Both the position numbers and the translations under genes were made by a program. Source: Lingula anatina (lineage: Eukaryota; Animalia; Brachiopoda). From it: DNA of 64,000 bases. Under the pieces are notes generated by a model, which did not search any database, was not told the origin of the DNA, and was given only the letters and a program-made list of their open reading frames with translations. The stretch lies in contig CM120643.1 of assembly GCA_051362555.1 (NCBI GenBank), positions 27,532,848 to 27,596,847 of the forward strand. Direction: 5' to 3'. Below are positions 21,011 through 54,758 of this stretch, piece by piece (the stretch's first letter is position 1; each line of letters starts with the position of its first letter).

Positions 21011-21055
<45 letters not shown>
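21011..21055. repeat. (TA)n microsatellite
   Basis: Direct reading. Confidence 0.95.
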
Positions 21056-21056
<1 letters not shown>

Positions 21057-21682: not shown

Positions 21683-21696
21683 GTTACCCTAGCAAC
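21683..21696. promoter_or_regulatory. RFX X-box match in G-alpha-o intron 2
   Basis: GTTACCCTAGCAAC. Confidence 0.4.
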
Positions 21697-25985: not shown

Positions 25986-26076
25986 GTGAGTACGCTGCTG
26001 TTGTCACCTGCCGCGCAAACACAACGTTATTATAACGTTACCATAACGAGTTTTTTGTTACCATAACGTTACCATA

Positions 26077-26109
<33 letters not shown>

Positions 26110-27256: not shown

Positions 27257-27304
27257 TTCCACGTAAACAACCACTGTACATTCCACGTAAACAACCACTG
27301 TACA
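27257..27304. repeat. Exact 24-bp tandem duplication
   Basis: ttccacgtaaacaaccactgtaca x2. Confidence 0.9.
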
Positions 27305-30300
27305 TAAAATAACTTCGATTAAGAGACGAACTGGACTTGATTAAGAGATATAAACACGTCAAACAAGGAGTTAGGTTTGCCAACTGTACCTAAATATAGA
27401 CCTATAGGTTCTGCAAGCTGTTCCTTGATGATTTGACACCGGAAATGGACAGGCCCCTGTACACATAGAACAAGAATATTTTACAGCAAATTTGAAACGT
27501 TGGGGTTAAAAAACATTCAATCCCCTTACGTTTTGTTATATATTTTATTCGAAGCAGAATTTAAGTGCATAGTACGCTTAATTAGAAAAAATGAAACACA
27601 GATGCCAGTGAGAGGGAAATCAATCAGATACATGTGCTACTAATTATAGCGATACTAGCAAAATACAAATTGAAACCACAAACAAATAGTCGTACAAAAT
27701 TTGAACAAAATTGCGTTAACAATACGCAGTAATCCTTGCACTAATATAAAGTGATGATCCAGAGAAGGCATTCGGTGGCTTAAAGGTATATATATATGAA
27801 AAGAAAACCGTGTCCAGTTTATTGTCATGTCAAATTATCGTCCTAATATGTCGCTCTTTAAAAAGAAAGTACAGAAGTATAGCTACCCCACGGATGAATT
27901 GGGTATTAACAAGTAAGAGAGAGGTAGAGCAGTGCGTTTGTGGGTGTGTGCGTGAGAGAGGGAGAGATGTCTTAAACCCCGTGGAAAAATTGATAATATT
28001 CGTGATAAGATACAATATGTTTACCTTAAAGGTGCTATTTAATTTCACATTTATTCTTCTAAAATGACTATTATTGGAACACAATTTCATGCACGAGTCA
28101 GCAGTTCATGGATAAGAATAAGACAGTAAACAATATCATAATCTGAAACGTGCACCAAAACACTGCAGCAAAACGGGGAGAGAGTAGACTGCAAAAAAAC
28201 AGGGACGCCAGTACTCCGCCACCCTCGAACCCCTTGGGTAATAACGAGCGTTCCATTTCCTCTTTTGAACGCATGTGTTGAACCCCAGCGTTTATTATCT
28301 ACGTAAAATGTCAACCTTACCGTGTCCTTGGTGTCCTAGTCATGTCCTTGTAAACAAACAATAGAGGAATGACGCGTTTGTTAATGTTATTAGTTCCACC
28401 CGTCTTGTTAATGGTGTTAGTGCGCTCTCGCCAGGCTGTTAGTGTATTGTACGCGGCGTGCGTGGCTTAGTACTCCGTGCAAAAAAGGGTCAATTTCTGA
28501 ACGTGATAGGTTGTCTTGATGCACAGACAGTACAATGACGTCAGCAGACGCGTATATAGGTATGTGTTTATGTTCACTTTTTGATTATTTAGCTTTTGAT
28601 GTCCGAGCATCGGTAAGATATTAAGAAGATTGCAATGAGAAGAGGAGGTATTTCTGTTCCCCCCTTTCTCTCTCTCTCTCTCCCTCATCGCTTACTTTTT
28701 CTTTCCATCCCTCTGTTCCCCATTTACTCCTCTGCCTTTACCTTCTGGCTTTTGCATTCACAATGTTTCCAAATTATGTTCTCAACGTTCCGACATTTTC
28801 AGTTGACACCAAGGTAATAGTTAAGTACATTTATTAATTGCCACCAACATCAGATTTCTCTATTCCCAGACTCAGCCCCCCTCTCCCCCATCTCTTCTCT
28901 TTCTCTCTCCTTCCATATCTCTCTCTACCATCTGGAAAACATCCCCCAAGATGTTCCCAAATGATGTCCCCAAACATCCGAACATTTTAGGCTCCAGCCA
29001 TAGCCTTTCAGCGCATCTGTTAATTGCTAGAGCCACCTTGCCTTTTATGGGACTTTGCTATACAAAGAGCTCGGAGGATGACTCACACCAAGGTCGCACG
29101 GTTCCTGCATCATTTATAACCATGCTGATGCCACGACATAAACTGTGTTCAGAACAGCGTACAGTTGCCCTTATAACGGTTCCGTGCCGCTATTATATGT
29201 TATATGTGTTATATATGTTATATACTATGTGTTTACCGCCTAGCAGAGATTTCGTCGCTAAACTGTCATATTTAAGGAGTATGTAATAAAGGTATGCGAT
29301 ACTTTTCCCTGTTTATCTGTGAAAGGGTTAAGAAAGTTCCCGGGTTCTGGCATGAAATTATCAAAACAGGGATTGTGGAGAGAGGAGGGTGGGGAGGGTT
29401 TTGGTTTTCCATTATTCTATTCCACCGTCTGGTTTTACTGAATGTGAATTAACTTATATAGGATCTTAGTCGTACTGATGTGCGTTATCATTTATAGATA
29501 TAGATCTACCTAAAAAGAGGGAAACGCTAAATTATATCAGCAGTATATTGCAAAAAGATCATATAATAAAATATGCAATGTACATGATTTTATATGTTTT
29601 CCGCCTAGCCACTTTGCCATGTGTGTGTGTGTATATATATATGTGTGTGGGTTCGTTAAATGCATTATCATATATAGATTCAACTTTTCTTAATATGCGG
29701 GATATGTCGAGTTATAATTAGCGTGGAGCCAAATCATCTAACACCTGGTTTTATAACACACGTGTGACCTACTAAGTGATGTAGACATAGAAATACGTAT
29801 TGCTTGATCACTATATACTATACTTTTAATTTCATTTTGCTTTAACATTTAAATAATGCTGATAATTTCATTTGGGCGTGCAGGGTTTGGGATTACATGC
29901 CGGCATTTTTAGATTTTATTTGGTTATATGAGGACGAATTCGACTTTTGTCTTATGGTGCAGCAGGGGTCCCTTAATGAGCAGCTATTTTCTCACTTTAT
30001 CAGGCAGTTTAGAAATTCGATATCAGTATTTTTTGCATATCATGGAGTGGAAAACGTCAAAATTGCTTGTCCTTTTATGTACAAAATTTAGTAAGACGAA
30101 AGGGTTCATGGTAATTGAGGCTAGGTGACTTTAAATGGTACCACATCATTTAAATAAAGGCGTATTGGTGCCATTTTGGCATTGGGCTATGTATACGCAT
30201 TATAAGGGTGCAGCCGTAGTCCTACCATAGGCTTGTATACCAAGATGACACGGGGTTTGAACCGTCTTTCTGGAACTGAAGCGTTGGTGTTCTGTAATGT

Positions 30301-31560
30301 TTCGCACTGGCTTATGTGCGACGAGGGAGCTTAAGCTACAGACACTGTAATGAAGAGAGGATTTGTTCCTAGGACAAAGAAAAACAGACCAGAGAATTTA
30401 AGTATCATCATTACGTTACCCAGATTAAACTAGAAACGATACCTTTTGCACTAAAAGCAGTGACACAGTGGCAGGCCTAAGGTTTTGCTTGGAGGGGGGG
30501 TCGAATTGGGGTTTGTGGGGGGCAAGGAAGTTGAATATTATACCAAGTACTGCACGGCAAATATTAAATCGTAGACGAGGATAATTGTACTGTAACATTA
30601 GTACAGGGATGGTGAAGTGCTAGTTAGTCATTATCATTAAATTTATTTATTTATTTATTTTTTTTTTTGGGGGGGGGGGGGCAGGGCGACAAGTCTTCTA
30701 TTGGTCTTCTGTTGACTGTGTTAGCTGTCGCCGACGTCTATCTGGCAGCCACTGCTGGCAGAAGCTGATGGGACACGCCCACCCGCACTGGCGTACACTG
30801 CTAACGAACTGGAAATTGATTTTCTTTGGCTTGGCAGAACTACAGCGTTCCACCTTCCTCTTTGTCTCTTAGTAATCATGTATGTCGTTCTGGTTCTTTC
30901 TACTGTTATATAAACGACGTTATAGAGGGCATTACTTAACACAGCCAAGTATACGTAGGCGTTTCGTGCCACCACTTATTTTTGTAACTATTTATTTACA
31001 CATTGGTTTATTCTCTATTTATGTAACTAAAGCTCGAACAAAGCCGTCTCCAGTCTTTATCTTTCCTAAATACACCTCAGTTTTCACCTGTTTGCGACAG
31101 ACATTCGAGATTATAGATGTCAATAACTTTGAAACGTCTCAGCCGTGAAAGAAAGCAGGTCTTGCAAGTAATCCAGCCGTACGCATTTAACGGCCAGAGC
31201 CTTGTTATCACTGTCCTTATTAACAAAAGCAAATTGTTGCCATGTAGCTGTCATATCAGAGGTATCATTTAGCCTAAGCTCGACATCTGGCTTATTCATA
31301 TGACAGTTACCTTACCACACCGTGTATTATGACAATGGAGGAAACATCCAACATCTTCTGTCAACTAATTGAACTTTGTAATCCTTGTACCGGTTATTTA
31401 TTGGTCGAATATCTGTTCGTATACGACACAGAACACATTGAAGCGTCGTTGGCCTCACAAAAAATTGGAGTTTCAGAAATGACAAGGATCATAGGTGAAA
31501 TATCTCACATGAAAGATTATTTACATTAGATAACTTGTTAGAGAGAAATGTTTTTAAATA

Positions 31561-31645
31561 TATAATATAATATAATATAATATAATATAATATAATATAA
31601 TATAATATAATATAATATAATATAATATAATATAATATAATATAA
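31561..31645. repeat. (TATAA)n microsatellite
   Basis: Direct reading. Confidence 0.95.
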
Positions 31646-32274
31646 ATGGAGCTGGAACTGAAGTATCTTGAATATCCAAGCTAAGCAACGATTAGCTATT
31701 AGAACAACAAAGAAAAAATTCACCCAAAAGACGTGTTCGACGATAAATGATAATTTGAATTATAAGGTTACAAGTTTCTTTGTGGAGTCTGTTGTAATTG
31801 TTGCACGTTATTAAGCCCTATGCAAATCATAATGACGCGTTTTACGACCAACGCATACTGTATTAATAGCGTACGATTAAAGTTCACACCTTTGCACATC
31901 GATGTGGCATATGATAATAACCAGCAGACACATGCAAAAGCAGTTCATTGAAAATAAATACACATATTACACTTAGTTAAACCTTGGGAAAGCGGTGCAA
32001 GAAACGGAGATAGAGGAGATGAAAATGATGAAAATAATCATTGAATTTTTGCATCCGCCATTTTTTAGTAGTCTGAACCCTATCCAAACATGTCATGGAT
32101 GGATTTAGATCGTGTAATGCATGCTTTTATGACACTGATCACTGATAAGCCTATAAGACCGTATAGTCGCGGGAGTTAGAACCCATGTTCAACGTCGATA
32201 TGCCTGTATGACAAAACGACATTTGAGGCCATGCGGACACTATATAGGGCATATATCCCTCTTTAGCTCACCAA

Positions 32275-32277
32275 AAA

Positions 32278-32324
<47 letters not shown>

Positions 32325-32367
32325 AATAATAATAAAATAAAATAAATAAATAAATAAATAAATAAAT
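32275..32367. repeat. (AAAT)n microsatellite
   Basis: Direct reading. Confidence 0.95.
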
Positions 32368-35300
32368 GCGTCGAGAGACAGCATCTCGGGAACAAAGAAA
32401 CTTCAGGCTCCGTGTTCGCAAATTATGATAATTTTGATAATGATATCGGTTTCCCGGATGTTAGTTATGCAATCATTTCTTGGAAACACGGAAATGTATC
32501 AAGATTAACTAACGCCTACTCCTGTTGCCCCGACTTCACACAAGATGCTGTGTTCTTGTTTTATATGTTGCTCGATGTCTTGATCAAAAACTAACCCCAA
32601 ATCTACCTTAAGATTGGTCCTATAAAACAGAAAATATGACTTGTTTTTGACATAACCAGAATACATGTCATGTGCAAAAGAATAGTTCCTAACATCCATT
32701 TATTGAAATAGTTGATAATATTTAATATTTCACAGAAATTATCTTTTGGTATCTGCAGAAAAGTGTACGCAGTAATGAAGTGGTAATGTTTTGACTCAAA
32801 TGCCTCATCGGTATTAAAGTTTTGTATCTCTGTACTTTCGATTTTGACAGAGGTTGACCACTGCAATGTATACAGGAAAACAAGCACTACAATATATAAT
32901 GGAAAACAAAGTTGCAGTCGCATCGTCACTGCCTCGGCAGGATGGCGTCACATAGATATTTCAATAAAATAGGGGACTCTGCACCCAAGACAGGCCCTGG
33001 GCAGTGTAGGGGCTGCAGCAAATGAATATATCTCTGACACATATGAGGTGAGAAGGCACTTAGCCTACTATACCTGCACTGATGGTAACCCGTTATGGGC
33101 CCCCTCAGTTACAAAACCTCATCTCGGTCTAGAGAGACGCGGCTGAAAACCCCATAGATAAAGTCAGTGACGCGCATCCATAATGTAATTATTAAGCAAG
33201 AGACCATGCGAGCACCGCGGTAGTTGAACCCCAGGTCTCAGCAGGCTGAATATCTTGGTCTGATTCCCAGTTTGTTCCAAGACACTTCCTGTAAGACCAT
33301 ATAGTCCTTCTGCTGCAGTTGCTTGCCGTTGACAAAAGGCGAGTTTTAGTAGATTTTCCTGTCTATGTAACGTAGGCCTATAATGTATAATAACATAATA
33401 ATATTGGTTCAGCTACTTTGGTTTTAAAAATACGTACAGATGTGTGTCTCTTATACACACACATAAGTTGTAGGTAAAGATGAATATCAAAATGTCGCAT
33501 TATTGTTTAGGGTTGAAATTGACAAAATGCCTGGGTTTCACCTATTACTCTCCGAAGTGGGAAACAAACTAAGATTCTGGCACAATCATGCAGGTTTCCT
33601 ATCAAAACTATGTTTTATGTAAAGAAAGTTGTATATATTTGTACTTTCACGTCTGTATAAAAAATATTTAGTAGTCCTTTTATATAAAAAATTTTTGCTG
33701 GTGATCCGATAAACTAAAAAAGCGAGTTTTTAGTATAATCAAATTGATGCCGAGCCGATTTGTATGTAAAGTCAAACATCTTTAAGCTAACAACGCTTTT
33801 GAATTAAGAATTGGCCATTCCAAGAGTTTGTGTTTCGTGCTTGTGTCTAAACATACAGGTTTTTAATTGACATCCAAATTAAGGATGCTGGTGTAGATTC
33901 AAAATGCCTTTTAAAGGAAATCTTTAAAAGATATTGTTTATTTGAAATTATTGCAAATATATATTAAAACGTTATTAGGAATCACGTAGGCTTTGAACTG
34001 AGAGCGTTGTTTAAGGTAATACTTAAGATTCTTAAAGTTCACGGCACAGACGGCGTTTTGTTTTTAACAACTTCGACCCAATATCGATTTCCAAATTTAG
34101 CCTGTGTAGATTCCCACCGGGGTTTTAAATATTGAACGTGAAGTTTCTATCAAGTACGCCACAAACTGGGCAATACACAGGGCTCTGTGAGCGGATTTCA
34201 ACATGAAATTCGATACCTTGTGACACTTCATTCAAGGTCTTCCTACAACGTTATTTTAAGATTTTTGAGGGTTTACTGTTGGGTAACGGTGGTTAGTTTA
34301 AATACTTGACTACCTGGACAAAAAGGCCGATCTTAAAGATGTGCGCAGTTATCCGTGGAATGTATGCTGTATCTCGAGCTATGAGTGTTGCTTATGTAAT
34401 TGGACACATAGCTCTCTGTTGGAAAAATATGATGGTTAATGAAAATATACGCTATGTACTGTCCTTAAGAAATTTCGTGAATAATTCACACGTCAGAGAA
34501 CAGTTTAGGTTACTTTAAACCTGAAATTTTCTATTTATTTCAAATGACAAACAGCACAGTTTTCGCACTTTGGTACTAATATATTACCTTTTTTTCTCCC
34601 AGTCAGAGTGAAACAAGTAATTACCTGGAATATTTTATTAAAATGACGTTTCGGAGATAAAATAGGATGAGGTATTTGCTCTTGAACCTGTGTGTCTGTC
34701 GTGATGACGCAAACACGAACAGAGTTGGAGACTATAGCACCTTATTAAAGTCATTTATAGGAAGTCTCTCAATTAAAAAGTTGACATTGACGCAATTTTT
34801 AATTAGGGCAGATATCCATTGACGATGACATCTAACACCTTTGAGGGAAGTCGTCAACTCTTAACATACAACAACGCTAAGTTTGCTTATTAGGTAAGCT
34901 ATAGCTCACACATTGAAAACGGACCCAAAATATTCATCAATGGAAGAAGTGAAAAATGAATAGGACAAATTAAACAGTTATTGTATTATTAGATCTTAAA
35001 ACATGAAATCACATGTTGTTGCAAGAGCGAAATGCGAGTTACAACTACTGTTTAACAACCTGTCTGTTAAATGTTGGTTTGAAGCAAGGGAGCTGGACAT
35101 GTTCCCAAGAGAGAGTTGTTTATTGCTTTTTAAAAAAAAGAAAAGTGACAAACAAAAGGAACTCCTTTTCCGTATAGGTATTATAGAAAAATACAAGGAG
35201 AGGTAGGTTTTGAGCATCCTCTGCATCGTGATGGGATGGTTGTATTATTCAACATAGTGTTTGGTTTGTTGCATCTTTATTTGGAAAAAGAGGTAGGCGT

Positions 35301-38300
35301 TTTGTCACGATGTCATGATGTTAAGCAAAGGAAAAGCGTCTGACGTCATACCCAACAGCCTGGGAAGAGAACACCCAACTTTGAAAGATACCACAAAGTA
35401 CCTATGAACCGCTAGAATTGAAATCCTATTATCCGTTTTTATCTTATATTCAGCGACTATTGGCGTAAAGACTGTACCGTATTGATTTTTTTATGCCGTA
35501 TCGCATCAAAAACGTGAAGGCTTACATACAGATAAGTCCATATTGAATGTGTTACGTGGATTGACGTAAGCGACACATTGATCTCGACGTATTCCGTGAC
35601 GCGTTATGACGTCACAAAGCTACGCTAAATATCCGATCTCAGGATCTTCCTCTTGTAATGGAATAGGCACTAAGGCATTGCAATATCTCTCAAATGATAC
35701 AATAAGAAGTGTGAATAATTTTACCTCTCCCTCTACTGCGTTTATCTTCAACCCGAGTTGATACTTTATTACGAAGTAAGTACTTTTTACTCAAATATTA
35801 TCAGCAGATAGGCGGGTATTTGGTTTCTAAAGATAAAAACACAAAATAATCATCATCATGACACCAAATAAAACGCTTATTTCGAATAAAAAGGGCATTT
35901 AAAGTGGTACTTTTGTCCATTACCTTTTCAGTAAGAAAAAGGCCCAGGGATAACGAGAACAGTTTTACTATAATATGAAGGGCACAGGGAAGGCAAATTG
36001 TTTTTGACTCGTTTTGCTCGGTATACCGTTTATTTTTCCTTTTTCTTTTTAATTAAAAAAGTCAAGGGCGGACCCCCCCCCCTCCACCCAACCACCCCCA
36101 CCCCCAACCCCACGGCGGGTGTTAGTGACCTTCATGATGGTGAATTTAAATTCATTTTTAACATTTTAACCTGTGAATAATATGCCATGGCCAGGTGCGT
36201 GTGCGTCAGGTGTGTGTGTCAGGTGTGACGGTCGGTCATCTGAAGGTGTGTCGTTAATGTCTTTAAATGATGGACGCGTGGGTATCAACCAGACATTAAA
36301 CACACAGACTATAACACGCAGAGGTGGCTCCGTGACAGCCAGTGTGTTGACTGAACTACTTCACTGGTGTTCAGCAATATGACGGCAGATGGAGCTGTGG
36401 ACTATTTTGATTGCAAGATAAGCACATTCGTCAACAATGAATCATTTCATTATTGGAATCGATACTCCGCTGTGGTTGTGTATTGATATAAATATGAAGT
36501 GATCACTCTTGATAACGAGGACCTAGATAAACCAAGTATCAAAGTTATATAGAACTTGTAGTCAAGGCCAAGCGTCTATACCAGTGATATTTGTACACTG
36601 AAGTGCTTGCTTATGTTAAAAATCAGTATTTCCTATAAAGCCAAAGGACACTGAAAATCATAAGTAACATATTCAAAATAGTTGATATTATAGGCTTGAT
36701 ACGCTTTAAAATTGATAGGTTTTATCAGTAATCTCTCTCTCTCTCTCTCTTATTATTATTATTAATGTTATACGTGTCCGTTCAACCTTCTCTTTATCCG
36801 CTATTGTTGTGTCAATGAATCAGCTAGAATAATAAATGAAAATAAACATAAAATTGACAGCCATCGTGAAAATTTGAATGTGTGGATACCAGTCTCAATA
36901 TGTTCGTCATATAACACTCAGTATGCTCGATGAATCATCAAAGCCAACGCTACACAGCGCTCAGGTAAGGCCGTTTGACAAATTAAAGAAATCATCTCTG
37001 TCAGTTGATTTGGGCTTTACACTTTACATGTTAGTAAGAGCCATAACGTGTAGTTTTCATGCCTACATTTCCCCCTTTGTAAATCTAAAACACATGTTTG
37101 GAGAATTTGGGCCGTTCTGATGGACCGCTGGATCGATTTTCTACTACGTTGCCCTCTGGCCCTTTCCGCTTTTTCGAAATTGAGTAAACACGATTCTGTT
37201 ATCGCACCTGCGTATTCGACAGAGGCAAGCAGAAATGTTGTTAAAAGCTTTGCAGACTGAAACTCTGCATAGACTTAAAGCCAGTGACTGTTTCGCTTCT
37301 CTGAAATATGAATGATAAAGGCGTGTCCGTTTGCGCATGATCAGTCTCATCACGGCTATATAGCACTTTTCTTCCTGCTTTTTGACAGTTAAAAATCATA
37401 TCTGTCAGTTTTCAATGTCATACCCAATAAATTAATTTAAGTACTTGTTTGTTCAAAGAAAACCTTTCCATGCGTTTGGGATATAAATGCCTCATATATA
37501 TTATGGCTCATTCTGAGCATCTGTTTTAAATTGCGGTATAATTTCCCATATGACGTCACCAACATATATGACGTCACATGCATGGTGTGACGAAGTCCAT
37601 TATTTTCATTCCATATTTTTCATGGGTTTTTCTGAGAACAATGTCATTCAGGTTACTGAGAGTGAGAGGGTGGATATAAGGATAAGACATAGTCTGACAA
37701 GGTCCGGGGTATGTCTCCCTCGTGGCGGGATATCCTCTGGAGGAGGCCACCAGATGGGGTTCCCGGTTATAGGTGACGTGTTAATGTTCTATAAGTGGGC
37801 GTGCTATAGGTCTGTCATTCCTCGTTAAACATGAGGGACCTCCCATTCTTTCTCGTCACTCTCTATCTGTCCTCCTTTTATCTCATCTTCCATTTCTTTC
37901 ACATTCTCCATCTCCCTTATACACACACACACACACACACACACATGCACAGTAAGTGCTCTCTCTTTCTCCCCCCTCTCTCCCTCTCTCTCTCTCTCTC
38001 TCTTGATGTTTCCATATGAAGCCAATATTTTAAGCTCACTTTTTTTTTACCGATGTTTAGTATAGTAAAGGCTCTTTACTTACTCTGCTGGGGAAAAGTA
38101 AGGTATAATGGCGCTGTTCAACATAAAGCTCAAAGACCTTCAAAATGTTGCTTAGGACGCGGGACTCCAGGAACACATCTGTTGAAGATAATATCTGCAC
38201 TTTACCTGAGCTCTATTACCTAGCCACTATTACCTTGTTTCTACAGGTGGAATTTCAAGTATGTTTACTTCTTGATATAATTAGACCCAAGGAGTATTGC

Positions 38301-39570
38301 AACTCAGTCTGCGTAATCTTTGGAAATAGTTTACGTACAATGTGCAGATGTACAGATAAAATTGACAGTCGTTAGAAATGTTTAGAGACAGTAATGATCT
38401 TATTCAGATTGATTTAGAGTGTCTGCGCATGCTTAGTAGGTCAAACCTGAAGTAGGAGAATATCACGCAAGATTTCCTACTTGTGAAGATTACCAAGGAG
38501 GTTAGTAGGTCAAGGTTGCCAGCCCTGGTTACAATATCTAATTAAGCCAGGTTTGCAATTAACTAGAATTTCAAGGAATCTTTAAAAGTTAGGTATTACA
38601 ATTGGCAATACCAAAGCCTGAATGTGGTGTCATTTGGACATAACAACTGTATGGATTAAAAAAAATTGAATGCCCATAAAACGTTACAATTGTAATTTAG
38701 ACACGCCCTTCCAAAATATGGCAGATTTACCAGATTTGAAGCACCCTCACCTTGGGCATATGATTTGGCTGGAGACCCTGAACACACGAGAGGTAAAGTT
38801 GGATATAGCTGAAACCTAAAGCACGGAAACCCAGGAAAATTTAAAACAGGTCAGAAAGGCCTTATCAGAATAGTTAACAGTATTACTTACGAAGTGTACA
38901 GTGTGGAAGGTATGATATTAATCATGAACTTAATGGAATTATAATGGCGAATGAATCAGTTGTTTAATACTTCAGATACACTACGTTAAATTCCAGAAAT
39001 TTATGTGTAAAATCATAATACATGTACTTCGCAGAAAAGGGTGTTTACAAAGTTTTTACCAGAATGTGTTGAGTTCTTCATTGTGATAGCCCACAAAACA
39101 AAAATAAAAAACAAGTTGCAGCGACTTGAATGAATGAATAATCACACCGCACGGCAATAATGGTGACGTAGCTCTCTTGATGACGTAGCTTTCTTGATGA
39201 CGTGGCTCTTGTGATGACGTGTTCGCGTGAGCAGTAGACAGAACACGCAGGCTTTGCTGTTGGGTTATTGAAGGGGCATGAGGGCAACAAAACGACTTGT
39301 TTTGAAAACAAACATTGGTTTGAGACTCCAGACACCTGTGTCTTTTCCTTTGCTTGTCGGTAATTTTGATCTAAAATGAACAGATAAACAGAAAAATTAT
39401 GAAGATATATATCTGAAATTAACCAAGTACCATGTAAAATTTTGTTAATTTTACTCAGATGAATATATGGCTTTGATAAGTATTTTTCATGCAGCTTTAT
39501 GAAAGGCCTCCCCATATTAGCAAAGCGTAAGACACATTTTGAGTAGCTTGGTATTTACTTACGTGACTGA

Positions 39571-39763
39571 GGGCGCATTCAGAACACGTTGATCCGCAAA
39601 ATAAGAAGTCCGCGGATTAAACATGGCCGACCCACTTAAAACTTTCCCAGCATCCCTGAATAGATTCCATGCAGAGATTATGCGGTAAACTTTCAAGTGA
39701 GTCGGCCATATTCGGTCCGAGGATCTGTTAATCCGTGGAACAACTTTAGTCGTGATTGTGGCC
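39571..39763. mobile_element. Degenerate fold-back MITE, Harbinger-like
   Basis: Internal inverted arms atggccgacccactt / aagtgagtcggccat; GG..CC ends flanked by TGA on both sides. Confidence 0.5.
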
Positions 39764-41173
39764 TGAGAGGTTCGTCAAGTGTACATGTATTCCACCAATT
39801 AGGCCCCTGTGACCATTTGCATCGATCTGTTTGATGCATGTACTAGTACCTTAGGTAAATTAGAGTGCCTTCAACATGGCCATGGCATCTTCTAACACTT
39901 CTCTGCGTGTAATGTAAATATTTCGTGTTGGGGGTCTTGTAGATGAACATGGGTGCCCGGGGACTGATTTGAAAGAATTCCACACTTATACAAAGATGAC
40001 TGTGTGCAGGTGCGTTCTCTTTGTCAATATTTCTATTGCTTTCAAAACTAAGAGCAAATAATTAATGCTTCCTCGGAGATACAGTTCAAAATACTTACAC
40101 CACACCTTTAATTTTGGAAAATACATTTATATATATATATACGAGTCTATAATACGACCGTGGTTGGAATGATAATGGCGCAGTTGGAACCGGGCAACTC
40201 GACCGATGTCTTCCATTATTTCTGAGAGATACAGTATATCAGTTGACCTATTTGAGGGGACACAAGTGTCCCTGTTGGTATATAACAGGCAGAACTGTTG
40301 CCTTATTTTCATAACCTCGTTATTTGCCGCAAATATCCTCTGCAGAACCTGTTCTATGGTTTGCAAAAAGAGGCACTTTAGATGTGTTATGCATATGACC
40401 TGTTATAAATCTCTAAGGCTTCTTTAGTTGGCCCTCTTTGCTTTTATATAAAACGTGTATTTCAAAGAACACCAGCTTAAACCATGCGCTTAAAATCTTG
40501 ATAACAAGGTGTAGGGAGACTGTCTCCAGAACGTTCAACATCTGTACTATGTATGTACTTATGATGGTTCCAGTTCAACCTCGGTCTAACACAAAGAAAC
40601 CTAAGAACCCCGGGCGGTCAACCCCATAAACCCTGTTAGGAACAGATCGGTGTGTGTGCAGCAATGTTGACTGTGGTAATACAGCCTTATTGCAAGGCAG
40701 CACAGCCAGAACCAAAATCAATACTTCTCTGGCTTAACCAACAAGCATTACTTTGCCTTGGCAGCTCGCGCTGTACTAGCATTAATGATGGCACCTAGCT
40801 AGGCTCTGCAGACGATCTTTGCGTGGGTGGTAAGCGCGACCCTGGAGTGGCGGAATAAATTAACTGCGGAGCAATTATATTGCGTCGTATGCGTTTTTAT
40901 AGGCGACTTCTGCGCAGATAGGGAAAGATGATTTCGTTGAATTGTTTACAGTCTTTAAACAGGCAGCAAAGGGGATTGGAATAAAAGTGTTTACAAAGAG
41001 GTTGAGTGCTTTTCAAAGTTAATGAAATTAACTGGTTGAGAAGTGTTTTGAGTTACGCAGATGGTTGCAATGAGTCTGAATGGATTTGTGTGGGATATTT
41101 GAGCATAAAGATGAAAATGAACGATCTTGAAGCAGTGCTTGTTTTCTGTATTCCCATGAAAGATAACTATGAT

Positions 41174-41424
41174 CAGTGGCGGATTTAGGGGGAGTCGGAG
41201 GATTCTGATCTTCCCTCCCCCTTCGATTTCTGAAAAAAATCACACCAGTGGTCCCCTCTTGAAATTAAATTTTTGACTAGCTGAATCATAGTTCTAAGCC
41301 CTACCAAATGACACCATTCGCCATCTAAAATACCCAAATATTTCAGGGCCCTCCAGCAAGGGGGGGGGCGGCTTGGCATCTGCGGACCCCCTCCCCCCTA
41401 CAAATAATCCCGGATCCGCCCCTG
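41174..41424. mobile_element. MITE family CAGTGGCGGATTTAG...GGATCCGCCCCTG, copy 2
   Basis: Imperfect TIR; 6-bp duplication TATGAT at 41168-41173 and 41425-41430. Confidence 0.8.
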
Positions 41425-44400
41425 TATGATATGCATAAACATAGTAGGCTTAGTGGGCCTTGAACAAATTGATATTGTGAGTATGAAAGGCGTTGAATAT
41501 AATAAAGGCTTCACCCAAAATTCAGTATCTTTTATTGTGGAGGATATGACTAACCTGTGGCGATTTTGTCAAGAGTTGTTTTTTATGGAGCAGTGTTGCA
41601 GATTTCCGGCATTGTCGTCCAGAAGGCTTTGGGTATGTTGTAGCAAAATGAGCACTTGTAAGTAAATCAAAGAGATAAATATGGATGAAAAATATTCATT
41701 TTCACATTACATCTATCGGGGCAATTTATTCATTTGTTCCTAGAGGCTTTTCTATTCTAGGCAGAGTTTACCTGTCCGCACAGAAATACGAACTCTGTTG
41801 TCACTTCTTGTTTCATGAAGTTGGTCACGTATGCACTTTTCACCCAGAGAATATTTCGGACGTGGAAGAAATATTATCACCGATAAGCCTCAGCTCTTGG
41901 GATCCAAAAACCACAGAAAATTGACCTTACATGCCCCTACATACACAAACATACATCCATTTTTGGGGGTAGATGGGGGAAAGGGGGTACCTCTGAAATG
42001 AGGAGGAGGGGAGGGTTGCCCCCTGGATCTGCCTTTGTCACAGTTTATATTATTGCTTTTTAGATAACGTTGGACCAGTATGCCCGTGACAATATACATT
42101 GTTTTATATTGGATTTATTGCTTTAAAGGGATAAATAACAATGTAGAAGATGGATTTGGAAAGAAGACCTCTTCCTAAACCGTTTTGTTGCCTAATTAAC
42201 AAGGAAAGAGAGGTAGTGGTCAACAGTGAAAGAGAGAGAGAGTTGTAAAATTCATTTTAATCATATTCAGTTATTTTTATCTCTGACAGTCCATTTTATT
42301 TACTCCATCAAGTATTTCCCTTGCTGTTTGCATTTCTTTCTTCTGTGTTCATACGTGAGATCAACAGAAGCCACCTAGGACTGTGTCAAACCTGATCAGT
42401 CACGTGCGTCCGATTTTAAAATCTCCCTCAGGTCGTTAAATGTGAGCCTTAACCAAACAGATGCCAAGAAATGAGACTTTCTTGGAAAACGACGCATCCC
42501 AAGGTTAACGTTGGCTGAACTGTAATCAAGTTGTCCTTTGTGGAAGTTACTAGTGGTACTTAGTTCACCATACAACCTCTTAAAACGACCGGGCGTGGGC
42601 GAGTGGCTCTACTTAGGCATAAAATTGGCACCTTTCTGTAACATTGCTTTTTGCAGCTTTTTTGTAAATCGTGTGTTTTATTTATATCTCTCAGAAATCA
42701 ACTGGGACAAATGAAATGGGAAATCTTCATGCAATGAAAAAAGCTGAATCGTTAATGGCTAGGATGCATAATTGGGTTTTAGATGCTTTAATGGGTGTTA
42801 TGGAAAATCGCCATTCTTGTCATGACTAAATCATTCACATACAAAAAACATTTTTGCTGTAATGTCCATGCACGATAGAGTAACGATACACGGTAACTCA
42901 TCATCTTTTAAATACACTATAAGCCATTAGCAAGGGATTTAAAATTGGTTCTTTTGTTAGGTTATTTTATTAATAACGTGTTATGTAATCTATATTAGAT
43001 ATGTTGGGAGAATTTGGCAAGGAAGGTAGTTTTGAATAAGGGGGCCTATATAATTGTATATATCGAACATTTTCTTTTGAACATAAGAGTTTGTAAAAGA
43101 ACAATTAACCCTTAACAGTATTTATTTAGTAAACTATACTATAATGGTAGCTGGATTCCTTAAGAGAGCTATTGTCATTCTTGAAATAAAAATGGCCTTT
43201 GGTCATTTTTGCCGTCACTCTCTGGCTATACTCCTCACCTACATAGAGTACATTATTTCTGAAGACTCGTCTCTCTTTGTCAAAGTTTGACTGTTTTAAA
43301 CACAATGTTTAATACTAAAGGACACGAATTATTTTTTAAAATAACAAAAAAGAACCTTGAAATATATATTACTCAGTGGATAGGCCTACGCAAACTTAAA
43401 CTTTATTCTGTAATGGCCCCCTTTTGAGCTTATCTTGATGATAGCAGGTTGTCATTGAGCTAAAATCGAGACTCCGTTCACCTTGACTTAAATGGGGCGT
43501 GAAAAGGAGGCAATGCATTTTTTTTTCATTATACTGTTTTTCGGTAATGATATATCACTACAGAAAGCTTTTGTATCGATTTGGCATATTCAAAATGGCG
43601 GAGGTTGTGGCTGTGGGAAGAGGGACCCAACATTTCAATTAAAAAAAGACGTTCCTTAAATGATGTTGCACTCAGTCTAATTATCCCACGTGGTTCTTCC
43701 CCTATCTGTTCAGTTTTAGGTACATTTCAAACCGATCCAATAACATCGACAGTGCCCTTCAGGCGAACATATGCACCTAATGGAATATAGTGGCAAATAA
43801 ATTATTCAGTGAAATATGTTTTGAAGTGACTATGGCTGATAAAGTCTGCGTTCACACAAGATATACCGTTCTGCATGAATAACTACATAAACGGTTGTCT
43901 AACACAGAAAGAATTAGACCCATTCCTAAATGTAGCCGTACAGAAACATGGCTGATTATGACTAATAAGTCACCTGGAGGAAAACAACGATTTCAGAATG
44001 TCCCACTCTCCTAGTGCGGTTTACACAATGTAGGTGTGGTCGCTGGTGGCCACGTGGGTGTCCAGGGCTCTACCAAAGGTGTTGAGAGGGGAGGGGGCCT
44101 GGTGCACAAAATAAAATGCAAATAAATAAATATAAAAAAAAAAAACACTCGCCTCTATTCGCACGTTATTGGAGATGAGCAACATTTTACTGTAATATGT
44201 ACGGCACAGGGAAAATTACATGTTTTTGACACGTACTTGTTTTAGCGTTTTGGGGGAAAGGAGAAGTGCCCTCCAAAATAGTGGGTAAGAGTACATTGTA
44301 CCTTCGGTTCTTTATTGACGCCATTATTGTATTAATAGGAAGGGTATAGCAGGAGTTGTTGGTTCCGACACCACAGCAAATCAGTCACTCTTACAGCACT

Positions 44401-46119
44401 CCGACCTCTTCCACTCCACTCTTGCCTCTTGATTTATGGGAAATAATTGAAAATGTCGGCACACATATCAACTCAGAAGTTGAATGCTGGATGGGGCGTC
44501 CGTCAGGTACCACTGAGACGTGACTTGGACCAGAAGAGGGTTATATTTACCTCAGAACACGAATTTACATGATATAACAGGAAGGTGAAGCGATCTGTAC
44601 TCGTTCTTTGCTATCAATAACCCCCTTTTTGGAGGATGCATACCGAAATATCTACTGGATTCTTGATATATTGTAGCTTTGTGAAACCAAACGAAATATG
44701 TTACTGAGAAGTTCGGGTAAAACGCACAGTAAATCAGTAACTATCATATGTATCAGATAAATGCTTTAATTTAACAAAATAACCTTACTATACTAATGAG
44801 GTAGATATAGAGGTGTGTATTCAAATATGTTTATCATATCAGTTGAATTCACTGGTAGCTTCAAAATAAACAGATACTCTGGTAAACCAGAAGTTAGTCT
44901 CTTAATGTTCAAAAAAGGTTCCACCAAATGTTAGAGCCAAGAAGCGTGATTCTTTTTATTTGTCGACCCCACGCCATATTTCACTGCCCTCACAGTTAAA
45001 TATAGCAACTGTCATTACCATAACATTCATCTCGCACGCTTCTCGTCATTTTTTGTGGCGTCCCTCTGGCTTTTCTGTAAAGGAATTCGGCGTGTCGGAA
45101 ATGGGAAAGTGCATATACACTATGGCAGTTAACCATAAATTCTATGGATCCTTTTGATAATTTATTATGGCAGAACTTGCTTAATATTCTCACGAAGGCA
45201 AAACGCCAGGTTGCTCGGTAAATTTTGTCAAAATTCCAAATATTTGTCTTGTTTTACCTTTTGATGTATTTACCTGAAAATCTCTTGTTAAATATAGGTC
45301 ACAAAAACGCCTAAAGTCAGTTTCTTCTTTTTATGAGTTTTAACTGTCTGTGAACTTGAGAAATGTTCTTTTATTCTTGGCCAACAAAATCGACAGGTAC
45401 AATTCAATTTACTGATGCATTTTCTTAGGTTATAAAAGCAACTGAAGCCAGGTCATGATAACACTGTTCTAATGTTATTTAAATTTTAATAACTTAAGTT
45501 ATAATTTAAGCACTAGCCGCATACAGTCATTAAAATGTTACCTCTATACTGTGTGCAAAGTATATGTTTCTTTCCCATTGCATAACGTCTACATTGCATG
45601 ACATCAAAACTGAATTCGAAATTTGAGGAGGCATTTCCTTTCGACATTTCTAGCAACTGTAAAACATTCCTTTATTTAATCAAACGATATATCTGTAAGC
45701 CACAAGAAAAAATAGATGAACAGTACATGTGTATATAAAAATTAATCTCAACGCAAAGCAGCTTAATATTGATGAATATAGCATTTGTATTGTTAGATAT
45801 TAATATGCATGTATTCATAATTTTGACGTTAAGACTCAGCAATTGATATGATATGTTCCTTAGTAGGCATTTGTATATTGAATCAAGTTGATACATATGT
45901 GTATAATGTGTACAATGTGTCACAGTGATTAGTATTTGTGAATGATTATAGGTTTACTTTGTCACATATTGATACAAATCGATACGTATTGAAACATACT
46001 GTCGATGTCACATATTGATACAACTTGAAACTGAAACATGAATACATATTATTACTTACTGATATGCACTAATATAATTTCAGTCAGATGGATATTGAGA
46101 AATGCTTTTCTAATTTCAG

Positions 46120-46280
46120 TCTGATGCAAAAATGGTATTGGACGTAATTGCCAGAATGGAAGATACAGAGCCTTTTTCCGAGGACTTACTGGGGGCTATG
46201 AAGAGGCTATGGTCCGACAGCGGCGTACAAGAATGTTTTGGTAGATCTAATGAATATCAGCTAAATGATTCAGCAAAATA
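46120..46280 (+). CDS. GNAO1: G-alpha-o exon 4 (after a ~20 kb intron)
   Basis: tttcag/gtaagt; [54 protein letters not shown]; 161 nt. Confidence 0.97.
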
Positions 46281-46618
46281 GTAAGTACTGACTCCAGTGC
46301 TGTATATAACTATAACCGGAGTTGAATCTGGTATTTTTGCTTAATGGTGAATAAGACCTTGAGATTAAGAGATTAAGGAGGATAAAGGTTTGTTATTTAT
46401 TTCATAGAAACTTTTTTAAGATGAGTGTTATTTTCATCAAATAAGTCCTGGAAAGTTAGAACAAATTAATGCAAAGTTAATATTTTAACTAAATTAGGTA
46501 TATGAAGTATCTCTCAATCCATCATTTTATGTGTTATTTTCTAGTTGGGCGTGCGTGTATGATTATGCTTGTAAATGTCAAACTGCTCTGCATGAGCAAT
46601 ATAACGTCTCTATTTCAG

Positions 46619-46747
46619 CTTTTTAGATGATTTAGATCGTTTAGGACAGAAAAATTACATGCCAACCGAGCAAGACATACTTAGGACAAGAGTTAAGACA
46701 ACTGGTATCGTAGAAGTACACTTCTCTTTTAAGAATTTAAATTTCAA
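46619..46747 (+). CDS. GNAO1: G-alpha-o exon 5 (switch I)
   Basis: tttcag/gtgagt; [43 protein letters not shown]; 129 nt. Confidence 0.97.
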
Positions 46748-47664
46748 GTGAGTACACTATTCAGCACTTCTACAAGTAGTATCCAATCAATTTGTAAACA
46801 TATAAGATACATGTCAGTGCGCTGTTTTTAATGTCTTCATTAATTTGATAAGGTACACGTTGTTGTTATTTTCTCATTTCCAAATTCGTAATTGGGAATC
46901 AGTGCTCATTATTCGAAACTTAACATCACAAACCTCAATAACAGCACGAAAGCACGTGTTGTTTTCTTGAATAGAGGTCTGTTATTGTATGCATTACCAG
47001 CAGTCGAGATTTCTTTAACGTGTTGATCGCCCAAAACCCTGAGTTTCCGAGATAAGTGAGGACAAACCACCACTACCATCATGGCGATTGATTTTCAGTA
47101 AAATCTGAATTGTCAGGGTGTAGTATAAGTAACTAGGATTATCATATTATCCGAGGGCAACGACTGGACTTGGCAGTAAACATCGCGTGTGGTAGAACCA
47201 TTTGCTATCCCCACGCTATTTAAGCTGAAAGAATTGTCAACAAATACACGGTTGATCTTAATACCTGATACATCATTACCTGCACATCCAGTAATTGCAC
47301 TCGTTCTTAGCCCTACTTTTTGCAAATCCCATATTGATAGCAGTGGTCTGTTGACATGTACCAAACACTAGTTACTTGAGGCGCCAACCTCACCCCCCCC
47401 CCCCCCCACCCCACCCCCACCCCCGAAGTAGACGTAAAGTAAGAGTTCCCAGCACCGCATAAACCTCTTTTGCCGAATGGCGTCTAAAAGGTAACGCCAC
47501 GGCATCACTACTGCTGGTTATACTGCGTTGAGAGGAGAGGAGAGAAACTGAGAAAGGGGCACATGTTCGGCTGACCCCCCCCCCCCCCCAACCCACCGAT
47601 CCCGTACCCTCCATGAATTACTTCGTTACCTATGAAAAATGCCTTGAAAAACTTCATATTTCAG

Positions 47665-47794
47665 ATTGTTTGATGTCGGCGGACAAAGATCCGAACGCAA
47701 AAAGTGGATACATTGTTTTGAAGATGTTACGGCTATTATCTTCTGTGTAGCTATGAGTGAATACGATCAAGTACTCCACGAGGACGAAACTACA
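47665..47794 (+). CDS. GNAO1: G-alpha-o exon 6 (switch II/III)
   Basis: tttcag/gtaaga; [43 protein letters not shown]; 130 nt. Confidence 0.97.
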
Positions 47795-48032
47795 GTAAGA
47801 ACCCGAACTAAAAATTTCTTTTAGAATGATAATTTGTTATACTATTTGTACAGAACCAGTTTTTTGTAGTCTGTCGATAGAATGACTAATCAGGTTAAAA
47901 GTTATTAAATAATGTAAAAATGTTCGAAATGGTGTATTTTAATAAAATAATTAAACATGCTTCTGCAATTGGATAAAAACTATCTGTACAACAGAGTAAT
48001 ATTGATCATTTCGTCGTCTGATATGAGCCTGA

Positions 48033-48251
<219 letters not shown>

Positions 48252-50298: not shown

Positions 50299-50486
50299 GT
50301 AAACAAACGTACGAGGATGCAGCAGCGTACATTCAAGCTCAATTTGAAGCAAAGAACAAAAGCACCACAAAGGAAATCTATTGTCATCAAACCTGTGCTA
50401 CCGACACGACCAACATCCAATTTGTTTTTGATGCAGTTACGGATGTAATTATTGCAAACAATCTACGTGGATGCGGATTGTATTGA
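50299..50486 (+). CDS. GNAO1: G-alpha-o terminal exon 8a (canonical)
   Basis: tttcag acceptor; [65 protein letters not shown]; the eight exons sum to 1065 nt = 354 aa plus stop. Confidence 0.97.
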
Positions 50487-50588
50487 TGTTGTTCAAGTTT
50501 TCAGAACTGTGCATCAGCAACAAAACCAGTGTGTGAGGCGTCACAGACTCTGACATGTACATGTAACTGCCTTTTTTACAAATTCCAG

Positions 50589-50776
50589 GTATACAGAGTT
50601 ACGAGGATGCAGCAGCGTACATTCAAGCTCAATTTGAAGCAAAGAATAAAAGCACCAGTTACAAGGAAATCTATTGTCATCAAACCTGTGCTACCGACAC
50701 GACCAACATCCAATTTGTTTTTGATGCAGTTACGGATGTTATTATAGCAAAAAATCTGGAAGCATGTGGATTGTAA
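50589..50776 (+). CDS. GNAO1: Duplicated alternative terminal exon 8b of G-alpha-o
   Basis: ccttttttacaaattccag acceptor, same phase, open frame: [65 protein letters not shown]; 188 nt like 8a. The duplication is certain, its use is not shown. Confidence 0.72.
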
Positions 50777-51016
50777 AGAATTGTTTAGTACTGCAAAGTC
50801 CATGAAGGGCAGTGGTTGGTGTCACTATACCGTGGTTTTTGCTTCAACACTGGTCTTTTCGCCGGTAATCCTGAAAGGCAAGGCATTCTCCAACACTCAT
50901 GCATACACGCACACACGCGCACGCAAACACGTACAGACAACACATGCATTGAAACATGTCTACAAGCAAGCTGTCACTCAAAGCGAACTAATCAGGAAAA
51001 TGTTCTAATATTCTAG

Positions 51017-51215
51017 AAGCTCAATTTGCGGAATCAAGGAATATATAAACCAGAAAACAGTTCTACAAAAATTAACAAAAGGTTTTGTGTATGCTATAAG
51101 CAGTTTACAATAAGACCAGGATACTGTTGCAGGGTTTATAAAAAGTCTTTGCACGATTCACCTTGACTGTATTGATGTTGTGACAAGTTTCAGGAGCACT
51201 CTGTGAGGCGACATC
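51017..51215 (+). pseudogene. Decayed third copy of G-alpha-o exon 8 and its 3' flank
   Basis: aagctcaatttg..aaggaatatat resembles the exon 8 core; gactgtattgatgttgtgacaagtttcagg..tgtgaggcg resembles the 8a stop and UTR (gattgtattgatgttgttcaagttttcaga..tgtgaggcg); no intact frame. Confidence 0.65.
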
Positions 51216-54200
51216 ACCAAAGATGGCGCCACCACCAAAGAGGGTCTCGTATATAAATACATAGTCTGTTTAATAGCAAGTCCGCCTTGCACTGTTATGT
51301 GAAACTGCACGTCATTTGAATACGTTCATGTGGCATTGTACGTTCAACTATGATATAGCTTCCTTTCTTGCAATTCAGAGGGATCGAACTTGCTAAAAAC
51401 ATTCATCACAAGGATTATAGCCTATGTACAGCTCTTGGTAAACGCTTCAGTAATGGCCATGGTTTAGATATTTATTTTTATCATTAGTTTGCGTTCAGCA
51501 AATTAATCCACATAATACTTTGTCATTGATGATTCCGTGCCAGGAGGTCTTGATGTTTTGCGCCTTATCAACGCCCTCTGGCGACTGAATAAACTAGGGG
51601 TGACGTCGGACGACAATGTGCGTACATGCAAGGTATACTGCGACGATGTTTCACTCCATAAGATATATGGAAGACTGCGGCGGTGGTTTTTAACTTCAAT
51701 ATGACACGATGATATCTGAATATATCCGCGAACATCGTCGTTCCTTTGGATAAGAACAAGACACGCCTGGTCATATCAATGTCTTCGTAATTTGTGGGCC
51801 GTTTGCCGCATTGACGCAGGATATAATTGGGCGAATCTTAGATCATAGAGTGGACGTTGGAATAAGGAACGTCTTGACTGCAAGCCCTCTATCGAGTGAA
51901 CTGAAAAGGGCCTTGTGACTGGGTGATACCCTACGGACTTTGGTCGTAAGAAGAACATTCTTGTCCAGAAAAGGAGTTGTCTTAGTAGTGAAGCAGAAAA
52001 GGAGCAACTCTTTCGATGGGATTATCACGTTAACGTTTTTGCGTATCCGTTTATGATATGATGTAGTAGATATGACTGTAATTCTTTTTGTTACTGAAAT
52101 CTGTTGATAATGAATCATTATCAGGGTTCTTTAAGAAATCGCTTACTTTGGAAGAGTGTAATTGCTTGAACTTGTTTGATATGTCACCGTAGCTGTAGAC
52201 GGAGACAGGTTGTTCCTTACTTGTGTACTATGTTACATGTAGAGACTGCCAAGAACTGTGTTTTTTCAGTAAAAAAAAAACACGTAGGTGACGGACGGCC
52301 CGTATGGTTCCATGTTAGGTCGTGGGAAAAAGCCAATATCTGTCAAAAGCCAAAAAAAGTGGCGTTAATTTTCCCGTTTTTGTAAATGTAAATTTTACGG
52401 CTCAGCGAATCAAACCGTGAATGTGAGGGAATTGAAAAGAGTGTTGACTAAAACAGTGCAAAGATATTCTTCCATACTAAACAGAAAAAATACCCGTGTT
52501 CAATCAAAGAGGGAAGTCGAGACAAGTAAGGATGCGTGGCAAAAATCAAAGTTGGAGTAACAGCAGACCTCAGTTATCCCAAAGTAACAACAATACTCGG
52601 TCACATTCTTACAGTTCCCAAACCATGCACTAACTCACACACGCCCACACGTCATTAGTACACGTACATTCTGTTCTGAAGAAAAAAAACACTGAGCAGT
52701 AATTCCGGTTATTTTGATTTGACAATTGACAAATTCTACTTAATATCGTTTGTAACCCAGAACCTTTTCCCTAGGCCTTGCCAACGCTCTGGAGCCGAGC
52801 ACAGTATTGGTGAGATAAACGAGCAGGGGAACTTGTGGCTTCAATTTTTGCTGGTGACAGTTGTCAAATTCAGGGGCCTTGTGGGACATACAGTTTATAC
52901 ATATGACAATGTGGGTGTTTCTTATTTGTGTATGCTAATGCACATATAACCAGGCATAAGTATGGAATGGAAACATATCCCAGTTTGTACTCAGTATATT
53001 CGTAAGGCATCCAGGCACATGTGCAATAGTGGTTTGGTGATTGCTGTCGTATTGACAGCCAATGTTATGTGACATATCGACAGCCATGTCATGGGACAGT
53101 CGTAACATATTAGCCTTCTATATAAAAACAAAATACGATACAGGGAAGATCATCACAAATATGTCGAAATTGTGAAAAACTTTGGGCCCGTACGCGTGTT
53201 ACGCTAGAGAAAATGTTGGCAGACGCCGTTAGTTAAGTGTGACTTGTTCTGTTTCAAAGTGTTCCACTCAATCGCACACACCGTATGCGGTGAGAATCTC
53301 TTCTATGATGCAGTAGCTTTGAGTATATAAGTATATCTATATAAAACCACAGAATGATAATGTTTCATGTTTCGAATGGATATTTAGATAACTTACAATA
53401 TAGCGATAGACTTTCCTCATTTGTATTTTGGTTACTACCGTTTCAAGTAATCGAGAACAGAGAGAAAATCGGGTGATTTTGCTCCTGTTCGGTCATCATG
53501 ACAATTAATGAGCTGTTCTTGGCATGTTTGATGATGGTTTTCATTACTTTATTTTTCAAAGAGTATTTCTCATGGTAACTAGTGTTTAAAGTAGCTGAGA
53601 GTTTGTGATTATGTTGCTTAGTTACGCGTCACTTGCAAATGGTGACCTCGTTGCAATTTAATTCGTATACAGGGTTAGAAAATTCAAAGGGGAGCAATTT
53701 ATCGCTGTGTAAAGAGACCATGTAACTACTAGTAACCTTGTAGCGTTTGTTACAAGCAGCATTTTATCTTGCCCATGGTATAACAGGCACTGGTCAGAAT
53801 TTGACCACCCATCTAGCGGCCAGCAGGGCACTATGTGGCATCCAATTGTTTCTAATTTGTTTTCATGACGTCTTTGATATGTTGTAGGTTGTTCCTACCC
53901 AATTTCATGCTTTAAGTGGCACTTAACGGGTGAGAACGCCCTAAGTGACGGGAACATCTTTAATGTAACACAAACAACAACCCATCAACATTAAAGAGGC
54001 GGCTATTGTATTTAATTAAGTCAGTGAATGTGATGCTAATTTTGTCTTCATTGGAGGCTTCTGCAATTCCTCTTTCCTTGAAGTTGGTTTTGTGTCCTGA
54101 TTGTCATTATGATTGCAGCCGTTTAGAAGTGAGGTGGGGGGGGGGGGGGTCGGTAAACGGATCAATTTAACGCCACATCTTATGGATGATCCTGTTTTCG

Positions 54201-54758
54201 TGTCATCTATCTAAAATGACGTCATTTTGCCCCCAAGGATTTCACGTTAGCGTCACCCACCTTTATTCTGTCCACCCTTGTGACAATCAAAATGCAATCC
54301 CAAAATTCTTGCAAAGAGTTTATTTATTTTCCTTTCAGTGCAAGCTGTGAGTAAGGGCATGGTCAATAACTATGCTATGAGTCAATATATAAATATATAT
54401 ATGATATATATGTACAAGTTGTATTAAAATGAACATTTTCAGGACGTCTAGTCTTTACCATTGTATGTAGTCTATTCAATTCAAAGTGTCTAGTTGTATA
54501 TTGCATATCAGTTATTCGTAGTTTTTTGGTCTTTTTCCAAAATCAAGATGAGTTGTTGGGGCGGGACATACATTTGTGTGCCGACACCAAGGAAACGTTG
54601 AGGAGGCAATGGCAATTGAACGGTTAAATCTCCACGCCACATGTGATTCACTTGGGATTGGGAAAAGATCTCGTAGAGTACGAGATTCTCGTGCTCGACT
54701 ATTTCAGCACAGCAGATATGTTACCGTTCAGTGTTGTGGCTCTTCATCCTGACTTTGA

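Follow-up and report, generated by a model that had tools for sequence, protein, structure and literature searches.

Few receptor-coupling elements in animals are as conserved as the tail of Gαo. In the vertebrate GNAO1 gene, the established isoforms GoA and GoB carry either exon pair 7.1-8.1 or pair 7.2-8.2, which are mutually exclusive (accessible part of Lokits et al. 2018, PMC5896119), and both tails end in CGLY. Among tandem duplicated exon substitutions in general, 77 of 236 human events swap the C-terminus; according to the accessible part of that survey, the events are mostly ancient and were detected as isoforms (PMC9741552). The roles of the last Gα residue and of the alpha4-beta6 loop have so far been probed by engineered mutants, such as the human Gi laboratory mutants Gαi1 ΔF354 and Gαi3 ΔY354 (PMC7192526 and PMC9079181, both in part).

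The window analysed here is a 64,000-nucleotide stretch of DNA from the brachiopod Lingula anatina, in which an earlier note, based on the letters alone, described a second copy (8b) of the terminal exon of Gαo behind the canonical one (8a). As in GoA/GoB (PMC5896119, in part), the 3' end of the gene is tandemly duplicated and receptor-contacting regions are altered, and the K346 of 8b is also present in GoB-like tails, namely in 6 of 436 tips. Unlike GoA/GoB, the Lingula gene doubles exon 8 only, the copies lie 102 nt apart and share the 3'UTR, their core appears to have been converted, and the 8b tail has no residue 354; 8b splicing was unseen in the RNA examined. The copies resemble the events of PMC9741552 (in part) in that homologous terminal exons stand as alternatives, but 8b looks lineage-restricted and is without junction evidence. 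A protein made from 8b would end without the last residue, as the two Gi mutants do, but on a Go background it would also carry N346K, R349E, and G350A together with an inserted loop residue. The kind of arrangement is already known, from C-terminal duplicated-exon swaps and from GoA/GoB, and the 8b tail itself is absent from the fetched proteins.

Orthology with vertebrate GoA/GoB was rejected since there is one exon 7 and the 8b core is nearly identical to that of its own 8a; together with the spiralian nature of the gene, this agrees with the independent origin that the earlier note had proposed. Such 3' duplications in Go have arisen independently in vertebrates and apparently also in decapods, and are not unique to Lingula anatina. 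Decapod Gαo (Petrolisthes P0001; Eriocheir P0070; isoforms of Penaeus and Macrobrachium) also has two versions of the C-terminal region, as read from database models; in Eriocheir, Penaeus, and Macrobrachium, the isoforms differ in the sequence of exons 7-8. The Petrolisthes model doubles exons 6-8 and, unlike 8b, keeps the 7-residue loop and the terminal Tyr. The models P0001, P0070, P0360, and P0363 point to exons 6-8 having been duplicated separately in decapods, and one Petrolisthes version ends in RVCGLY.

Structure of the Gαo gene

One complete 8-exon Gαo gene lies on the + strand of the window (Table 1). In tblastn searches with three spiralian Go proteins, exons 1-7 were matched once and exon 8 twice, and splicing of introns 4, 5, and 6 was seen in RNA. 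The Go-type sequence, the canonical ten-residue tail, the eight exons, and the predicted length of 354 aa place it in Gαo (GNAO/preGNAO). The best PDB matches of exon 8a are Gαo, and the gene is spiralian since the 8a protein is up to 94.6% identical to mollusc Go and 92.7% to Capitella.

Table 1. Coordinates of the Gαo gene and its terminal exon copies in the window.
Feature	Position	Strand	Remarks
Gαo exons 1-7	18631..48210	+	877 coding nt, end in phase 1; AG/GT borders, open frame, tblastn with spiralian Go
Gαo exons 1-3	18631-18748, 19159-19201, 25844-25985	+	
Gαo exons 4-7	46120-46280, 46619-46747, 47665-47794, 48057-48210	+	
Exon 8a, coding part	50299..50486	+	canonical ten-residue Go C-terminus; exon used in the RNA examined
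Spacer between 8a and 8b	50487..50588	+	102 nt; start of the 8a 3'UTR and 8b acceptor region
Exon 8b	50589..50776	+	intact in-frame duplicate of 8a
8b core homogenised with 8a	50611..50737 (limits approximate)	+	putative gene-conversion tracts either side of the indel island
In-frame indel island inside the 8b core	near 50659-50664	+	
8c, putative decayed third exon 8 copy plus 3' flank	about 50972-51232	+	in-frame stops, indels
Long 3'UTR common to any 8a or 8b transcript	50777..54500, runs past 54500	+	continuous RNA depth
Candidate poly(A) signals AATAAA	54759, 54948		hexamer positions

Comparison of exons 8a and 8b

Exons 8a and 8b are 188 nt each including the stop, each is preceded by CAG and starts with G|GT, and exons 1-7 joined to either give 354 aa with a single stop. 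The offset, own CAG acceptor, equal phase, open frame, and equal length of 8b had all been noticed earlier and are borne out by the coordinates and the translation. The two copies are 89.6% identical across 193 nt (blastn, E 8e-71), which is well above chance. In Go numbering, the changes in 8b are K294I, T296S, one added residue in the alpha4-beta6 loop, N346K, R349E, G350A, and Y354stop; the translation thus has the loss of the terminal aromatic residue and the change from Arg to Glu that had been described, and it ends in AKNLEACGL where 8a has the canonical tip, which is found in 346 of the 436 tips fetched; a stop at 353 is present in none of them.

The region before 8b carries a branch-point-like CTGAC/TAAC, a pyrimidine tract, and TTCCAG. 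The putative acceptor is 71% pyrimidine at -20..-4, with no further AG within 38 nt, and this share falls inside the 53-88% range of the seven other acceptors of the gene; it is weaker than the 8a acceptor (0.71 vs 0.82). With two homologous tandem exons of the same phase, each with a predicted acceptor and an open frame, the locus has the structure of a tandem duplicated alternative terminal exon.

Probable gene conversion and age of the copies

The near identity of the core and the clustering of changes at the start and the tip, both pointed out in the earlier note, hold in the alignment. In codons 4-48, 1 of 132 nt differs (the indel codon left out), compared with 4 of 9 nt in codons 1-3 and 10 of 39 in codons 49-61, or 14 of 48 for the ends together (Fisher p 2e-8 vs core). 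Synonymous sites, which the earlier note had not considered, follow the same pattern: the core has 1 difference at 44 such sites and the ends have 5 at 10 comparable sites (p 4e-4). The longest identical run is 86 nt (permutation p 0.00035). When 59 distinct exon-8 sequences of other animals were compared with 8a, 62% of the same core synonymous sites differed; therefore, the core is not intrinsically frozen. The flanks of 8a and 8b align only at about 63-65%, with gaps (5' flank 28/43, p 0.02; 3' flank 34/54, p 0.1, not significant). An old duplication with its middle overwritten by gene conversion is likely to be the best account of the near-identical core and the diverged ends.

With gene conversion, an open and near-identical core would be expected even in a dead copy, which weakens the argument of the earlier note. 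The clustering of changes at the ends of 8b would largely mark the boundaries of conversion tracts, and it was rejected as proof of positive selection. Overall, 8b is a genuine copy of the terminal exon of Gαo, apparently confined to this lineage, with a core that was probably converted.

Further downstream, inside the 3'UTR and displaced from 8a by a constant 682-689 nt, lies a candidate third copy, 8c, which is absent from the earlier note, with a recognisable EAQF.ES.N stretch and with the original stop and 3' flank kept. Its local score of 80.5 exceeds those of shuffles (41.6±6.7, maximum 68 of 300) and the top score among 347 other windows (72.5). A search with the 8a unit (nhmmer) gave E 0.043, and the 3' flank and the exon taken separately gave p 0.0015 and p 0.007. 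With a DNA profile of the 59 exon-8 sequences from other animals, 8c went undetected, and support for 8c as an exon 8 copy is modest. The 8c 3' flank is closer to that of 8a than the 8b 3' flank is, so that the intactness of 8b would not be due merely to youth. Where 8a reads TAT TGA, 8b reads TAA AGA; divergence has thus already reached the former stop codon and the sequence just after the new one, so that the short end of 8b is not very recent.

RNA evidence on the use of exon 8b

Eight of nine RNA runs for the species (all but X3), from unspecified tissues, were aligned, with 6-30% of each run read, and splice joints were listed from 3 reads at 2 starts upward. The joint from exon 7 to 8a (48210 to 50299) has 48 reads in 4 of the 8 runs, with 13 in X4, 15 in X7, 11 in X8, and 9 in X9. 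The junction from 48210 to 50589, which had been named as the one to look for, is not among the joints listed at this threshold in the eight shallow runs. Runs X1, X2, X5, and X6 have no exon 7-8 junction reads of either kind and are uninformative on 8b use. If each informative run holds at most 2 unlisted exon 7-8b reads, the p value is 0.003 (reads) to 0.04 (distinct starts) for an 8b share of 25%, 0.02-0.14 for 20%, and 0.43-0.67 for 10%. A share of at least 25% in the sampled RNA is unlikely, and one of 10% is compatible with these reads; since the sampling is shallow, 8b usage is bounded and not refuted.

The RNA depth over the 102-nt spacer equals that over 8b, and no clear step is seen at the 8b acceptor in 102-nt bins aligned on the spacer (12.4 to 12.8 in X8 and 16.9 to 20.9 in X9). 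Coverage is continuous through 8b to at least 54500, and is on the + strand in X4, the run that appears stranded. In the sampled RNA, 8b is mainly 3'UTR of the canonical 8a mRNA. Of the proposed alternative-last-exon switch, the duplicate, a usable-looking acceptor, and changes at receptor-facing positions stand; the switch itself, which would give a joint from exon 7 to 8b, was not seen in the RNA examined.

The same reads bear on the assembly. A mis-joined haplotype or repeat might produce closely spaced copies with a core of such high identity; however, RNA reads of other samples span 8a, the spacer, 8b, and beyond without a break, no 290-nt skip is listed, no read fits two places, and the differences between 8a and 8b are structured. 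Since RNA from other samples covers 8b, as part of the 8a 3'UTR, 8b is present in other animals of the species, and an assembly artefact, which is highly improbable, was rejected. Among the variants listed for X8 and X9, eight fall in 50824-51003 and none in 50299-50823; similar gaps are present elsewhere in the UTR, and the gap over 8a/8b is a weak sign of constraint.

Relatives and databases

No second exon 8 copy was present at any of 80 Go exon 8 loci in metagenome contigs, of which 71 have at least 500 nt downstream; many are redundant and, with a best exon 8 DNA identity of 83% and no non-coding match, none is closely related. A degenerate pattern for the 8b tip had 0 matches in the metagenome contigs. 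Among 423 fetched proteins, none has the 8b tip or a tail ending in CGL at 353. Likewise, no 8b-like tail occurs among the matches listed (the best 120 of 313, the best 120 of 211, and 150 of 1070 representatives); the homologue set was clustered at 90%, which could hide an 8b-like isoform, and from 7 of the clusters at most 15 members each were viewed. In the literature searched, with partial coverage, no report of a duplicated exon 8 in an invertebrate Go was found. In the 80 loci (L001-L080), two Go-like exon 8 types recur, SQTY...KEIY and KQSY...KEVY, which suggests two Go paralogues in the host animals of these contigs.

Predicted properties of the 8b protein

The TCAT motif of 8b and the part encoded by exons 1-7 are as in the canonical protein, so that the nucleotide handling, Gβγ binding, and effector binding of the 8b protein should be normal; in Gα subunits, these functions are expected to be kept with such parts intact. 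In Gαi1, the alpha5 residues F336, V339, I343, N347, L348, and L353 pack on Ric-8A (PMC7192526, in part), and 8b keeps every residue matching these contacts. The accessible part of the same paper gives the terminal carboxylate of residue 354 as a key Ric-8A contact, and describes Gαi1 without F354 as stabilised in the GDP state and crippled in its activation by Ric-8A.

Altered receptor coupling is predicted for 8b because exons 7-8 encode receptor-contact regions (PMC5896119, in part). No direct measurement of receptor coupling after the loss of residue 354 was found in the literature searched, which includes the accessible parts of PMC12499500 and bioRxiv 2022.05.25.493498. The earlier note had also considered the 8b form probably insensitive to pertussis toxin. 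Such insensitivity was rejected: 8b keeps the acceptor cysteine C351, in contrast to what would be expected of a toxin-insensitive Gαz-like Gi/o, and Gαi3 without Y354 is still ADP-ribosylated, about 5-fold less (PMC9079181, in part). The authors of that paper, in its accessible part, state that the effect of residue 354 may be smaller in Gαo.

Possible selection on exon 8b

The tip columns were scored across 105 representatives, which yield 21 distinct Gi/o tips. Conservation stands at 95% in columns 343, 344, 347, 348, 352, and 353, and columns 345, 346, 349, 350, and 354 are the most variable. The 8b tip changes solely at 346, 349, 350, and 354, all of which are among the five most variable columns and none among those conserved at 95%. 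Seven hook residues were picked beforehand, partly from PMC7192526; six of them then proved to be conserved at 95%, with C351 at 76%. The chance of four changed tip codons sparing these seven residues is 0.019, in a post hoc test (p about 0.02) on four changes.

The sole indel in 8b is a net +3 inside the probably converted core, and the loop that holds it, which we take to be the alpha4-beta6 loop, becomes 8 residues long. Of 40 Gi-like proteins, 38 have a loop of 8 residues, whereas all 374 Go-like proteins have one of 7 (both sets being redundant); 8b aligns gap-free to Gi1. When neutral copies were simulated, the AG, the frame, the absence of an internal stop, and the seven residues were all retained in 9% of trials at divergence 0.1, in 1% at 0.2, and in 0.1% at 0.3. 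Third positions hold 10 of the 15 differences, an excess that does not reach significance under the null of a dead 8b (p 0.15). Overall, protein-level constraint at the 8b ends is suggestive, in tests that were chosen post hoc and cover few sites, and the spared alpha5 residues, the in-frame indel of Gi length, and the decay of the adjoining 8c favour past or present selection on 8b.

Possible function and evolution of exon 8b

More likely than not, 8b serves as an alternative 3' acceptor that is seldom chosen. The donor of exon 7 at 48210 would, in some cells, skip the stronger 8a acceptor and take 50589, presumably with the same 3'UTR, and the resulting Gαo of 354 aa is predicted to couple to receptors differently. 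The predicted protein would retain the nucleotide pocket, the Gβγ and effector surfaces, and the hydrophobic alpha5 residues, and would combine an alpha4-beta6 loop of Gi length with a reversed charge at 349 and the absence of residue 354. Because of the latter three features, it would be activated weakly or by another receptor set and respond poorly to Ric-8A; it would still be a pertussis-toxin substrate, though a weaker one. We put the probability that 8b is currently used as a minor alternative last exon at roughly 0.55. The acceptor, frame, and length of 8b are intact in spite of its old flanks, the adjoining 8c has decayed, and C-terminal swaps between duplicated exons form a common functional class (PMC9741552); against this use, there is no listed joint from exon 7 to 8b, conversion alone explains the intact core, the tail is in no fetched protein, and, if divergence is assumed to be as low as 0.1, 9% of simulated neutral copies pass every filter.

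The missing junction may also mean that 8b was once selected and is now retired, because its acceptor was outcompeted or the stop at Y354 was disabling, so that it would be carried silently in the 3'UTR with its core refreshed by conversion from 8a. This would account for the protein-level pattern at the tip and the missing junction together, and 8c exemplifies the death of copies at this locus; however, the acceptor and frame persist although the short end is not very recent, and no 8b variant is listed in the more divergent animals, X8 and X9, although this is weak evidence. Such retirement seems rather unlikely. If 8b was never functional, it would be a tandem duplicate lying 290 nt from the original and evolving neutrally, with a homogenised middle, eroding ends, and an ordinary nonsense change at the last codon. 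The mosaic divergence that includes synonymous sites, the non-significant third-position bias, the missing junction, and the absence from the 80 related loci fit this history, which is nevertheless unlikely considering that the neutral simulation passes all filters in only 0.1-9% of trials (divergence 0.3-0.1) and that an in-frame island survives within the converted core.

A more specific form of the minor-exon reading is possible, though doubtful. Here, 8b would give a cell-type-restricted Gαo isoform that lacks residue 354, universal elsewhere, and has a Gi-length loop and an acidic hook, and the choice of 3' acceptor would re-address Go or leave it nearly deaf to receptors and Ric-8A, as a Gβγ buffer, with conversion keeping the core in step while selection guards the islands of difference. 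If so, a natural isoform would test in vivo the roles of the last residue and the alpha4-beta6 loop in receptor choice and Ric-8A handling, and would be an instance of a G protein being redirected or muted by splicing. Should 8b be silent, the locus would still be a compact case of repeated exon duplication, with one copy converted and one decayed, and a caution that an intact duplicate frame can result from conversion.

Other features of the window

In intron 7, a possible 12-nt in-frame microexon at 49936-49947, with a pyrimidine tract and CAG before it and GTAAC after it, would insert four residues ahead of exon 8; it had no read support in the RNA runs examined. The same intron holds a short dispersed repeat with terminal inverted ends at 48697-48862, here labelled MITE-like, that attracts hundreds of reads from other transcripts, and another element-like stretch with inverted ends, unlike this repeat, is at about 41177-41425. 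Pieces of an upstream LIM-domain gene are spread over about 1700-13000 (+), where the ORF at 12325 has a LIM-like start and a Pfam LIM match at 1687-2196 is weak and below cutoff. At 63119-64000 (-), a 294-aa open frame leaves the window, with no Pfam match and a leucine-rich-repeat-like appearance by eye. Just past the candidate poly(A) signals of the Gαo gene, a minisatellite with a 100-nt unit is present at 55088-55735 in 6.5 copies with 97% matches.
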